A stretch of 28,344 nt of DNA, taken from contig CAZBPC010000039.1 of NCBI GenBank assembly GCA_964493715.1, positions 1-28,344 on the forward strand, written 5' to 3'. The DNA is from an uncultured archaeon. GTDB taxonomy: Archaea; Asgardarchaeota; Lokiarchaeia; Sigyniarchaeales; SOKP01. Position numbers and translations under genes: made by a program. Under the pieces are notes generated by a model. The model saw only the letters and a list, made by a program, of their open reading frames with translations, ran no database searches and was not told where the DNA came from. Shown here piece after piece: positions 2,105 through 11,154 of this stretch (the stretch's first letter is position 1; each line of letters starts with the position of its first letter).

Positions 2105-2974
2105 ATGGTTTATACTCATCAAGACTTTAATTATATTGACTCGCATGTTCATTTCTTTCCTCCTAAACTATTTAAAGCAATTTGGGACTTTTTTGAGAAG
2201 CCTGATGATGATGGAAATCCCCGTGGGTGGTCGATCAAATATAAGTTAGAAATTGGGGACTTAGTTGAATTTCTAAAATCTGAAAAAGTAATATCCTTTA
2301 CAACGTATAATTACGCTCACAAGAAAGGAATTTCTGAACAAATAAATGAATGGACCTATCAATTCTGTAAAAGTAATCCTGAAGCAATTGCTTTTGGATG
2401 TGTTTGGCCTGGTGATGATAAAAAACTCGAGTATGTTCAAAAAATTATTGATACATATAATTTTCAAGGGCTCAAATTGCAGTTATTAGTCCAAGATTTT
2501 TATCCGCTTGATGAGCGAATGTTTGAAATTTATAATTTCATATTAGATAAAGGAAAATGGATTAATATGCACTGTGGTACTGCTCCTTACTCCAATAAGT
2601 TCGTAGGTTTCAAACATTTTACTAAATTTATTGAAAAGTTTCCGGATATAAATATAATAGTTGCCCATTTTGGGGCATATGAACATGAGAAATTTTTTAA
2701 ATTAATGGATAAGCACGAAAATTTGTATTTGGATACTGCAATGGTGTTCATTCCGTTCAAATTATTTGAGAAGTGGAATCGAGATATAGATTATCCAGAT
2801 AGAGAGTTACTTATATCATATCAAGATCGTATTCTTTACGGGAGTGATTTTCCTAATATACCATATGATTATGAGGTTTCTACGAAAGGATTATTGGATT
2901 TAGACTTAGATAAAAGCATATATGAAAAGATTTTTAGTGAAAATGCCAGAAAAATATTTAATATATCCAAATAA
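2105..2974 (+). CDS. Amidohydrolase family (Amidohydro_2-type) metal-dependent hydrolase
   Basis: Motifs IDSHVH, GLKL, MHCG, IVAHFG, LYLDTA and ILYGSDFP. Confidence 0.88.
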   Translation: MVYTHQDFNYIDSHVHFFPPKLFKAIWDFFEKPDDDGNPRGWSIKYKLEIGDLVEFLKSEKVISFTTYNYAHKKGISEQINEWTYQFCKSNPEAIAFGCVWPGDDKKLEYVQKIIDTYNFQGLKLQLLVQDFYPLDERMFEIYNFILDKGKWINMHCGTAPYSNKFVGFKHFTKFIEKFPDINIIVAHFGAYEHEKFFKLMDKHENLYLDTAMVFIPFKLFEKWNRDIDYPDRELLISYQDRILYGSDFPNIPYDYEVSTKGLLDLDLDKSIYEKIFSENARKIFNISK

Positions 2975-8291: not shown

Positions 8292-9077
8292 ATGAGACAA
8301 CTAAATTACGATGAATTATGTTCTGATATTCAGTCTTGGATCAAACTATATGTACGTTCAGCAGGAGCAAAAGGAGTAGTAGTTGGGTTAAGTGGGGGAA
8401 TCGATAGCGCTGTCACTGCTGCACTTTCGGTCAATGCAGTTGGGAAAAGAAATGTGATTACTGTTGGATTACCATGTGAGTCCATGAATAAAGATTTAGA
8501 AGATGCAAAATTAGTAGCAGAGTCATTAGGGGTTCGATTTTATACTGTAGATCTCTCTTCGACATATAAGGAACTCTTAGGTTCTCTTCCTTCACAAATT
8601 GAAAAAAAAAAAATTTCATTATCAAATATCAAACCAAGATTGAGAATGTTAACTTTGTACTTTATAGCTCAATCAATGGGATATATTGTTGGTGGCACGG
8701 GAAACAGAACCGAGATTGCAATTGGTTATTTCACGAAATATGGTGATATAGAATTACTTAACGTATTTCTACACTAAGGTGGTGTGGATATTGAACCAAT
8801 TGGAATGCTTTATAAAAGAGAAGTAAGAGAGATCGCCAAAATTTTGAAGATCCCCGATAGAATTATTATGAGAGTGCCGAGTGCTGGACTTTGGCCAGAT
8901 CAGACCGATGAAGGTGAAATTGGGTTAACCTACGATGAGCTAGATGAAATCATATATAGAATCGATCACATTTTAACTCTCGATAATTTAAACAATGAAA
9001 ACGTTGAAAAAGTTAAAAATATGATGAAACTTGCTGAACATAAGCAAAAAATGCCACCTTCTTTCAATATCATATAA
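8292..9077 (+). CDS. nadE: NH3-dependent NAD+ synthetase, join(8292..8747,8778..9077), 251 aa after removing a 30-nt intron
   Basis: GLSGGIDS, NIKPRLRM, GTGNRTE and GYFTKYGD in exon 1; GGVDIEPIGMLYK and PSAGLWPDQTDEGEIG in exon 2. Removing 8748-8777 restores TKYGDGGVD. Confidence 0.9.
8748..8777 (+). other. Bulge-helix-bulge (BHB) mRNA intron in nadE, 30 nt, ending in an in-frame TAA
   Basis: Central helix GGUG (8742-45)/CACU (8772-75); 3-nt bulges AUA (8746-48) and AAG (8776-78); intron stem 8749-57/8763-71; exon-exon stems flank it. Cutting after the second nt of each bulge gives exactly the excision predicted from protein homology. Confidence 0.88.
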
Positions 9078-10495: not shown

Positions 10496-10761
10496 CGAGA
10501 TTAGTTAAGAAGTTATTATTATTTTGTGTAATTTAATTCTATTTAAGAATTTAATAACATTTTACTAATTTATTTTTATGTAATATCCTCAATAAATCTA
10601 TTCACTATCCACTCCAAGATAGAAATGATACTCAAAAAATAAACTGAAACATTCTTGGAATGACTCGAAAAATTATTGATAAAATTAATAAAGTTCAAAT
10701 TTTACAATGGATTAATCAATCATATTAGATATATTGAATAAAAAACTAAGGTGTATATCAG

Positions 10762-11154
10762 ATTAGCAGAGCCGAGAAATGGGCTATTATTCATCTATTC
10801 AGCTCATATAATAATACCATAGTGACCGCAACCGATTTGAGTGGTGGCGAGACCTTCGCAAAATGCACTGGTGGAATGGTTGTAAAAGCAAGTAGAGATG
10901 AATCCAATCCGTATGCTGCGATGCAATGCGGATTTAGAGTAGCAAACGACATACGCGATAAGGGCATCACAGGTGTTCACATTAAGGTAAGGGCTCCAGG
11001 AGGAAACAAGAATACAACCCCTGGACCAGGAGCACAAGCATGCATAAGAGCACTTGCCCGTTCGGGCTTGAAAATCGGGCGTATAGAAGAAGTAACACCA
11101 AGATCTCACGACCACTGTCGCCGTAAGGGCGGTCATAGGGGACGACGTGTTTAA
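10762..11154 (+). CDS. rps11: 30S ribosomal protein uS11, 130 aa, probable ATT start
   Basis: The conserved N-terminus [17 protein letters not shown] lies upstream of the track's GTG (10822). TPGPGAQA and [11 protein letters not shown] present. In-frame TAA at 10747-49, AAGGTG at 10748-53, ATT at 10762. Confidence 0.93.

Follow-up and report, generated by a model that had tools for sequence, protein, structure and literature searches.

A predicted bulge-helix-bulge mini-intron in the NAD+ synthetase gene of an Asgard archaeon, with inserts of the same build in other coding genes

The 28,344-nucleotide contig CAZBPC010000039.1 of an uncultured Asgard archaeon was analyzed over its whole length, and is referred to here as the window (contig C39 of the source genome, G000; handles beginning with G, C, and L denote genomes, contigs, and loci). 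The assembly comprises 160 contigs and 3.68 Mb, with 31% G+C. The window carries the NAD+ synthetase gene nadE at 8292-9077 (+), which is broken at 8748-8777 by 30 nt containing an in-frame TAA. The first nadE open reading frame (ORF), 8292-8777, begins with ATG and terminates at a TAA codon (8775-8777); the same frame reopens at 8778 and runs to a stop codon at 9075-9077. The 30 nt very probably represent an intron of the nadE pre-mRNA that adopts a bulge-helix-bulge (BHB) fold and is spliced by the endonuclease EndA and the ligase RtcB. Support at the sequence level comes from the anatomy of the gene, the coincidence of the predicted cuts with the homology junction, covariation, selection on the exons, and the presence of the enzyme genes. 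The features are listed in Table 1.

Profile comparisons revealed that nadE is a full-length match to the NH3-dependent NAD+ synthetase profile, with the PP-loop motif SGGIDS encoded in exon 1. The Pfam family PF02540 (NAD_synthase) matched the first piece over profile positions 3-144 (E 1.4e-43) and the second piece over positions 144-242 (E 1.8e-25), and the read-through product, with X in place of the stop, matched positions 3-242 of 242 (E 1.1e-70; 238 bits, against a cut-off of 21). Since the two pieces join at 144/144, precisely 8748-8777 are surplus. The insert separates the KYGD codons from the GGVD codons, and its last triplet is TAA. A first-pass annotation, made from the sequence letters, had described two nadE ORFs in one frame, separated by 30 nt within this motif, and both the ORF list and the Pfam matches agree with it. 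Four public runs, each from a different study and none of them flagged as a possible source, yielded contigs that cross 8748-8777 without a gap or joint; the insert is therefore real DNA and no assembly artifact, which disposes of one objection foreseen at the first pass, namely that it might be missing from the raw DNA. A co-occurring strain was seen in runs X3, X4, and X6, with differences at 8711, 8715, 8967, 8971, and 8987, and none within 8719-8802, from which the BHB and its closing helices are built. None of the 24 sequencing runs listed for the locus is on record as RNA.

Table 1. Features of the split nadE gene and its predicted RNA fold (positions in the window), and inserts of the same or a relaxed build elsewhere in the source genome.
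Feature	Location	Strand	Details
nadE exon 1	8292..8747	+	152 codons, ATG start, SGGIDS, C-terminal end ...KYGD; PF02540 3-144
Predicted 30-nt BHB mini-intron	8748..8777	+	In frame, TAA-terminated; from tblastn exon mapping and DNA contigs
nadE exon 2	8778..9077	+	99 codons + stop, N-terminal end GGVD; PF02540 144-242
Central helix, 5′ strand (exon) GGUG	8742..8745	+	Pairs with 8772-8775; 28/28 cells paired in 7 sequences
Central helix, 3′ strand (intron) CACU	8772..8775	+	Pairs with 8742-8745
5′ bulge AUA	8746..8748	+	Predicted cut 8747/8748; agrees with homology junction
3′ bulge AAG	8776..8778	+	Predicted cut 8777/8778; minimum-free-energy fold and RNAalifold pair A8776 with U8741 instead
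Intron hairpin h′	8749..8771	+	Arms 8749-8757/8763-8771, 8/9 pairs, one U-U; loop UUAAC 8758-8762
Exon-side helix h, UAU with GUG 8779-8781	8739..8741	+	U-G, A-U, U-G, weak; 90.5% of cells paired
Second exon-exon helix, UUCAC with GUGGA 8784-8788	8730..8734	+	97.1% of cells paired
Outer 9-bp exon-exon helix, CAAUUGGUU with AACCAAUUG 8794-8802	8719..8727	+	93.7% of cells paired; 2 pairs changed on both sides
leuS, predicted intron	C44:26027-26056	+	30 nt; tRNA-synt_1g 4-46 then 48-135
rtcB, predicted intron	C2:12136-12164	-	29 nt; RtcB 1-46 then 48-426; loci L098/L105/L113
Thiolase C-terminal domain, predicted intron	C28:23007-23036	+	30 nt, phase 2; Thiolase_C_1 14-49 then 52-143
Thiolase gene, second predicted intron (relaxed)	L100 2209-2238		30 nt
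EF-2-like gene, predicted intron	C76, L108 2411-2440	-	30 nt; GTP_EFTU 9-176 with one TAA inside; third piece from profile position 48
EF-2-like gene, relaxed BHB insert	C76, L108 about 2533-2563	-	31 nt, frame-shifting; between AHID and HGKTT codons, inside P-loop codons

The RNA across the insert can be folded into a BHB motif. The first-pass annotation had listed a GGUG/CACU helix, AUA and AAG bulges, an intron stem with eight of nine pairs and a UUAAC loop, and three exon-exon helices, all of which were found. As defined in PMC7714728, the canonical hBHBh′ motif has outer helices of at least two Watson-Crick pairs each. The nadE RNA has the 4-bp central helix (8742-8745/8772-8775), opposed 3-nt bulges that hold the predicted splice sites (with the caveat that the energy model prefers a 2-nt 3′ bulge), and an intron-side helix h′ well above that minimum (8/9 pairs in the source genome; 85.7% of cells over seven species). 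The minimum free energy of 8715-8806 is -26.6 kcal/mol (z -4.72; equaled by 0 of 200 shuffles), and the corresponding structure contains all of the listed helices. When the insert was shuffled 200,000 times between cut sites set by protein homology, all four pairs of the central helix together with at least eight of the nine stem pairs arose in only 16 cases. One alternative register (8746/8779) within 15 nt of the 5′ site passes looser criteria, and it breaks the frame. Cuts in the two bulges had been claimed to excise just the 30 nt that homology requires, and the Pfam junction and the tblastn gaps described below bear this out; removal at these positions would be expected to yield a functional product, as judged by the continuity of the Pfam match and by the 30-nt versus 0-nt gaps among relatives.

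The site was compared in relatives using a family set of 133 genomes, 112 of which have a nadE match, and a class set of 159 genomes. In seven of the 112, the nadE match contains internal stops and is 27-33 nt longer than usual. These bearers represent five genera: G000 and G016 (g1), G073 (g21), G075 (g22), G080 (g23), and G098 and G106 (g28). Mapping of the exons by tblastn was tried at 76 loci and succeeded at 74, the unmapped two being long glutamine-type genes; the gap at the nadE site was exactly 30 nt in seven loci and 0 nt in 67. In an alignment of the seven sequences (A1), the predicted partners can pair in 92.4% of the 210 cells; displacing the 3′ partners by 1-3 columns lowers this figure to 26.2-42.9%. 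Changes on both sides are seen at eight pairs, and the observed values were reached by none of 500 shuffles. Both-side changes occur at four of the nine pairs of the intron stem across the seven species, and the central-helix pair 33-62 of A1 is U-A in six sequences and C-G in one. The most telling change was found in G073, where GGC replaces GGU as the exon glycine codon and G replaces A at its intron partner. The second exon-exon helix has C-G in G000 and U-A in five others, by way of synonymous changes, and RNAalifold independently predicts the same helices from the seven-sequence alignment. The intron is thus present in seven species of five genera, with compensatory changes in the stem, central, and exon-exon helices, as the comparison proposed at the first pass was meant to reveal; the contrary outcome named there, that relatives might carry inserts without BHB pairing, is contradicted by these data.

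Other longer or similar matches were set aside. A match in G147 was rejected as not being nadE, and the longer nadE match in G154 proved to have a protein insertion elsewhere. A relaxed DNA pattern matched in 17 of the 159 class genomes; six of the matches are nadE, seven of the other eleven places lie in unrelated genes, and the strings at L047-L050 resemble that at L046. In G075, the intron-bearing nadE has an incomplete second nadE-like copy immediately upstream (G075:C143:3570-4040 (-), L042); it covers query residues 1-158 with 47% identity and one internal TAG, and a similar copy is found at G077:C29:192-656.

In the closest pair, G098 and G106, the introns differ at four of the five loop positions and at none of the other 25, at synonymous divergences (dS) of 0.34 and 0.96 in the exons. 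In this pair, the ratio of nonsynonymous to synonymous divergence (dN/dS) amounts to 0.25 in exon 1 and 0.145 in exon 2, and the latter value indicates that the downstream piece is still translated. Ratios of 0.08-0.30 were obtained for the other computable intron-bearing pairs, which are saturated. Judged by these ratios, both nadE exons are under purifying selection. The exon-exon pairing holds on average at 16.0 of 17 positions in the seven intron-bearing genes, versus 13.0 in the 67 intronless genes, a comparison whose weight is limited by kinship; the 9-bp outer helix is perfect (9/9) in four of the seven, versus three of the 67.

The host encodes the enzymes that splicing of this kind would require. 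Two matches to the tRNA intron endonuclease domain PF01974 were found above the curated cut-off (102.1 and 68.2 bits). One of these ORFs (L001, 1150-1773) has the Tyr, His, and Lys positions, which we take to be the catalytic triad of EndA, and the other (L002, 1210-1827) is without the His; the two homologues are probably a catalytic alpha and a structural beta subunit. An (alpha-beta)2 EndA with an L1 loop has been described in Asgard archaea, and the (alpha-beta)2 type and such loop inserts were tied to broad substrate specificity (PMC5829648). A single rtcB gene is present in G000, so that both a splicing endonuclease and RtcB are encoded, and this rtcB is itself split by a 29-nt insert. 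ARAGORN identified 27 tRNA genes, 13 of them with introns, several at non-canonical positions. The genome was scored as 100% complete, and many of its tRNA genes are probably hidden by introns.

The nadE intron can be described as a fixed build, consisting of 1 nt, a 9-nt arm, a 5-nt loop, a 9-nt arm, 4 nt that pair with the exon, and 2 nt. The first-pass annotation had suggested searching the genome for other BHB-split coding sequences, and a scan of G000 tuned to this build was informative. Besides nadE, four genes of G000 (leuS, rtcB, thiolase, and an EF-2-like gene) carry at least five predicted introns of this kind, giving a total of at least six in five genes. Matches with a perfect stem numbered six at 30 nt, one at 29 nt, and zero at 28 or 31-36 nt. 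A relaxed scan gave 177 matches, mostly noise, among which lengths of 29-31 nt were examined. The two pieces of rtcB are out of frame with each other, and only the predicted cuts bring them back into register. The rtcB intron recurs nearly unchanged, and always as 29 nt, in five of the 159 class genomes, representing three genera (G000, G001, G082, G089, and G091). All of the mini-introns in leuS, thiolase, and the EF-2-like gene lie inside highly conserved protein motifs. The mini-introns of different genes share a common build and no common sequence. At eight of the nine sites, the last two nucleotides of the 5′ exon are A and a pyrimidine, which in six cases belong to the Asp codon GAY; at the ninth, the relaxed thiolase site, the exon ends in A-A; the 3′ bulges of the validated introns start with A-A, A-G, or U-A. 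We know of no such sequence preference for EndA.

Further candidates in G000 were supported in part or not at all. A 30-nt insert with a perfect 9-bp stem at C145:299-328 (-) lies in a second thiolase-like gene; Thiolase_N 3-52 scored 19.7 bits, below the cut-off, and the downstream piece had no match, which amounts to partial support only. Support is likewise partial for C53:2033-2062 (-), also 30 nt with a perfect 9-bp stem, in a gene resembling the beta subunit of 2-oxoacid:ferredoxin oxidoreductase, of which the downstream piece alone matches TPP_enzyme_C. The candidate at C28:34412-34441 (+), 30 nt with a perfect 9-bp stem in a gene with a GTPase-like motif, is unsupported, its downstream piece being without a Pfam match. 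Those at C129:2124-2151 and C10:8171-8199 are also without support, and the first break (A|B) of the thiolase gene on C28 could not be resolved into an intron.

Two other explanations leave the RNA intact. One possibility is that NadE is made as two polypeptides, of 161 and about 97 residues, that assemble into an active enzyme; the GTG at 8784 in G000, two codons into the second piece, could then serve as a start. The remaining six intron-bearing genes have GTA or GTT here, leaving no conserved start, the break falls inside the conserved KYGD/GGVD motif, and such an arrangement would explain neither the conserved RNA pairing nor the frame-shifting cases of 29 nt (rtcB) and 31 nt (EF-2-like). 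A split enzyme is therefore regarded as extremely improbable. Programmed translational bypassing, in which ribosomes would hop over the 30 nt, has precedents in gene 60 of phage T4 and in short inserts in the mitochondrial genes of one yeast, and the occurrence of short, stop-containing hairpin inserts within several coding genes of one genome resembles those cases. Bypassing requires take-off and landing codons that match, and these are unmatched in nadE, where GAT precedes the insert and TAA or TAG is its last triplet in seven of seven genes, and rtcB likewise lacks a landing match. Bypassing also has no need for the conserved exon-intron pairing in BHB geometry, and we give it next to no credence.

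Several observations weigh against excision of the nadE insert by EndA and RtcB. Both the minimum-free-energy structure and RNAalifold favor a 5-bp central helix, with the extra pair U8741-A8776 and a 2-nt 3′ bulge, and the strict 3-4-3 drawing, at -20.8 kcal/mol, is 5.8 kcal/mol less stable in the model. The exon-side helix h, with one Watson-Crick and two wobble pairs, falls short of the strict hBHBh′ definition, and its middle pair is broken in two of the seven species (G073 and G080). The intron is patchy, being found in seven of 112 genomes. A generic scan of the whole genome for strict hBHBh′ motifs joining two ORFs of 50 or more codons across an intron of 10-200 nt gave 1744 matches, versus 1837 and 1800 in controls whose 3′ partner was shifted by +5 and -4, and no length bin or score class was enriched over these controls. 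The BHB motif alone is therefore common by chance and constitutes no proof; the scan is uninformative about further introns, because chance matches swamp the few real ones. A second scan gave 2637 matches, and its offset controls (1115 and 3231) were not used, as the offset alters the stem geometry and makes them not comparable. The nadE gene of G101 (G101:C28:217319-218074, L085) has no insert; 11 codons before the intron site it carries an in-frame TAA, which is either a nonsense change or a sequencing error and suggests that nadE can decay in the family. Finally, a second NAD synthase match in G000 (C68:17967-18698 (-), L034) runs into a contig end; in relatives, the corresponding frames are about 550 residues long and of the glutamine-dependent type. 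The genome thus probably encodes two routes to NAD, and nadE need not be essential.

The last points raise the question of whether nadE is a pseudogene, in which a stop-bearing 30-nt insertion has ended expression, the hairpin is the remnant of an element, and NAD is supplied by the second, glutamine-type synthase. Besides the in-frame TAA, this explanation would draw on the C68 match, the nonsense codon in G101, and the 105 of 112 family genomes in which the nadE match has no insert. A dead gene would not be expected, however, to keep the insert with intact flanking frames in seven species of five genera, to show a dN/dS of 0.145 in the downstream exon of the closest pair, or to accumulate compensatory changes that keep the stem and central helix while the loop drifts. 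Inserts of the same build also occur in the sole rtcB, in leuS, and in the EF-2-like gene, in a genome where introns interrupt 13 of the 27 tRNA genes found by ARAGORN. The pseudogene explanation is accordingly considered very unlikely.

The weakness of helix h, together with the A-pyrimidine ends of eight of nine 5′ exons, a preference not known for EndA, could instead point to removal of the insert from the RNA by other means, either another nuclease and ligase or self-cleavage that recognizes the hairpin. The rule of cutting after the second nucleotide of the bulge nonetheless predicts the junctions of nadE in seven genomes and those of leuS, rtcB, thiolase, and the EF-2-like gene, with phases 1 and 2 included. 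Group I and group II introns have a ribozyme core of hundreds of nucleotides. The 30-nt insert is far below that size and no Rfam family reached its gathering score in the window, on which grounds group I or group II self-splicing was rejected and self-cleavage is disfavored. Only a slight chance is left for removal without EndA and RtcB. The nadE motif belongs to the relaxed BHB class, in which the weak h is followed here by the 5-bp and 9-bp exon-exon helices, and relaxed BHB motifs are reported to be accepted by hetero-oligomeric EndA (PMC5829648, PMC7714728).

Splicing by EndA and RtcB would proceed as follows. As exon and intron fold together, the exon GGUG would pair with the intron CACU, placing the AUA and AAG bulges on opposite strands of a helix closed by the intron hairpin on one side and by three exon-exon helices on the other. 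EndA would then cut in both bulges, after 8747 and 8777, and RtcB would ligate the exons and release the 30-nt piece, probably as a circle. The mature mRNA would encode a complete NH3-type NAD+ synthetase of 251 residues with the KYGD/GGVD motif restored. Translation of unspliced mRNA would stop after 161 residues, yielding only a fragment. It is inferred here that the RNA is cut and ligated in the cell, when this happens with respect to translation, and what becomes of the intron. The nadE intron would be one member of a set of introns of about 30 nt with one fixed build, present also in leuS, rtcB, thiolase, and the EF-2-like gene. The sequence-testable parts of the interpretation offered at the first pass (cuts, conservation, covariation, selection, and the EndA and RtcB genes) all came out in its favor.

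The seven nadE introns are clearly homologous, as judged by their equal length, common stem ends, and common central helix. On the NadE protein tree, five changes of intron state are needed, at least three of which are forced by well-supported branches, and a single clade of intron-bearing genes was rejected by the approximately unbiased test (p-AU 0.00015). The nadE of G000 falls outside the 26-row clade of its own genus, and groups, with weak support, with intron-bearing genes of three other genera. In G016, identity to the intronless sisters falls from 0.82-0.98 to 0.62-0.68 over the 60 nt past the junction, and identity to the intron-bearing alleles over the same 60 nt is 0.72-0.82. Such a profile is consistent with the intron having moved along with a short stretch of exon; it could also result from selection for pairing, and repeated loss is a further alternative. 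A broader possibility, put forward tentatively and with more doubt than confidence, is that these inserts form a still-active class of uniform 30-nt mini-introns that is colonizing the conserved motifs of many coding genes in this Asgard family. They would insert after A-pyrimidine, mostly at an Asp codon, and spread from one species to another through short recombination tracts or a process akin to homing; as they would also reside in rtcB, the splicing machinery might gate its own synthesis as well as that of translation and metabolic enzymes.

Among the closest known systems is the BHB intron of the crenarchaeal cbf5 pre-mRNA (Watanabe 2002; Yokobori 2009, PMC2738675). Like the predicted nadE intron, the cbf5 intron is described in PMC2738675 as a short, BHB-like, EndA-cut intron of a coding gene, found patchily in hosts with hetero-oligomeric EndA and mis-predicted by gene callers; its patchy distribution was attributed there to gain and loss. 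Unlike cbf5, the present case concerns an NAD+ synthetase gene and the Asgard phylum, with at least six introns in five genes, all of about 30 nt and of one fixed build; no interruption was found in the cbf5 gene of G000, and the nadE gene tree rejects a single intron-bearing clade. BHB introns are also very frequent in the tRNA genes of some Asgard archaea (PMC11291895; bioRxiv 10.64898/2026.10.13.758758). The motif is the same and the enzymes presumably are as well, in a genome that is rich in tRNA introns, but the nadE substrate would be an mRNA whose reading frame must be restored, and its exon side is closed by pairing of coding sequence, which constrains synonymous sites. An EndA-processed BHB element has been reported in the 5′ untranslated region of the HVO_1309 mRNA of Haloferax volcanii (PMC7714728). 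Both cases have an mRNA as a natural EndA substrate (predicted for nadE), but the HVO_1309 element lies in an untranslated leader, in a euryarchaeon with a different type of EndA. In the splicing of HAC1 and XBP1, IRE1 and a tRNA ligase (RtcB in animals) excise a short coding-mRNA intron at paired stem-loops, altering the reading frame. The likeness lies in a protein endonuclease that removes a short intron from a coding mRNA and a tRNA ligase that joins the exons; IRE1 splicing differs in being stress-regulated and lacking a BHB motif, and no homology is implied. This unconventional mRNA splicing is named in PMC13149111.

Few BHB introns are on record for archaeal mRNAs. PMC7714728 (2020) states that, beyond tRNA and rRNA, such an intron had been reported in crenarchaeal cbf5 mRNA only, in agreement with the rarity assumed at the first pass. 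A 2025 endonuclease paper still lists among its references only the cbf5 papers for pre-mRNA splicing, and the papers on intron-rich Asgard genomes (including PMC11291895) cover tRNA genes only. No report of BHB introns in Asgard protein-coding genes was found in full-text literature searches that did not extend to supplements and subscription journals. The enzymology is known; the new elements are the lineage, the genes, the presence of several introns per genome, the uniform 30-nt build, the lateral-looking spread, and a ligase gene as host.

The occurrence of an intron in rtcB, the gene of the very ligase that must join the exons, would make the splicing ligase dependent on splicing. If confirmed at the RNA level, mRNA splicing by protein enzymes would be routine in the gene expression of a lineage near the eukaryotic stem, with a bearing on the origin of interrupted genes and on the separation of RNA processing from translation. 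It would also mean that gene callers score such genes as pseudogenes or fragments, distorting metabolic reconstructions and completeness estimates of Asgard archaea, and that RNA pairing constrains synonymous sites in the flanking exons. The patchy spread across genera would then offer a system for asking how BHB introns arrive, which was called an open question in the Asgard tRNA-intron preprint (bioRxiv 10.64898/2026.10.13.758758). Should the broader class of 30-nt mini-introns be real, the closest prokaryotic relatives of eukaryotes would include an intron-rich coding genome processed by protein enzymes.

One further irregularity was noted in the window. The frame at 10750-11154 (+), which we take to be ribosomal protein uS11-like from its motifs, is open from 10750, with no in-frame ATG, GTG, or TTG before the conserved N-terminal motif; the first such codon is GTG 10822, inside the motif, and a GTG at 10751 is out of frame with the ORF. 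This arrangement could reflect a non-standard start codon, a change of frame, or one more small interruption.

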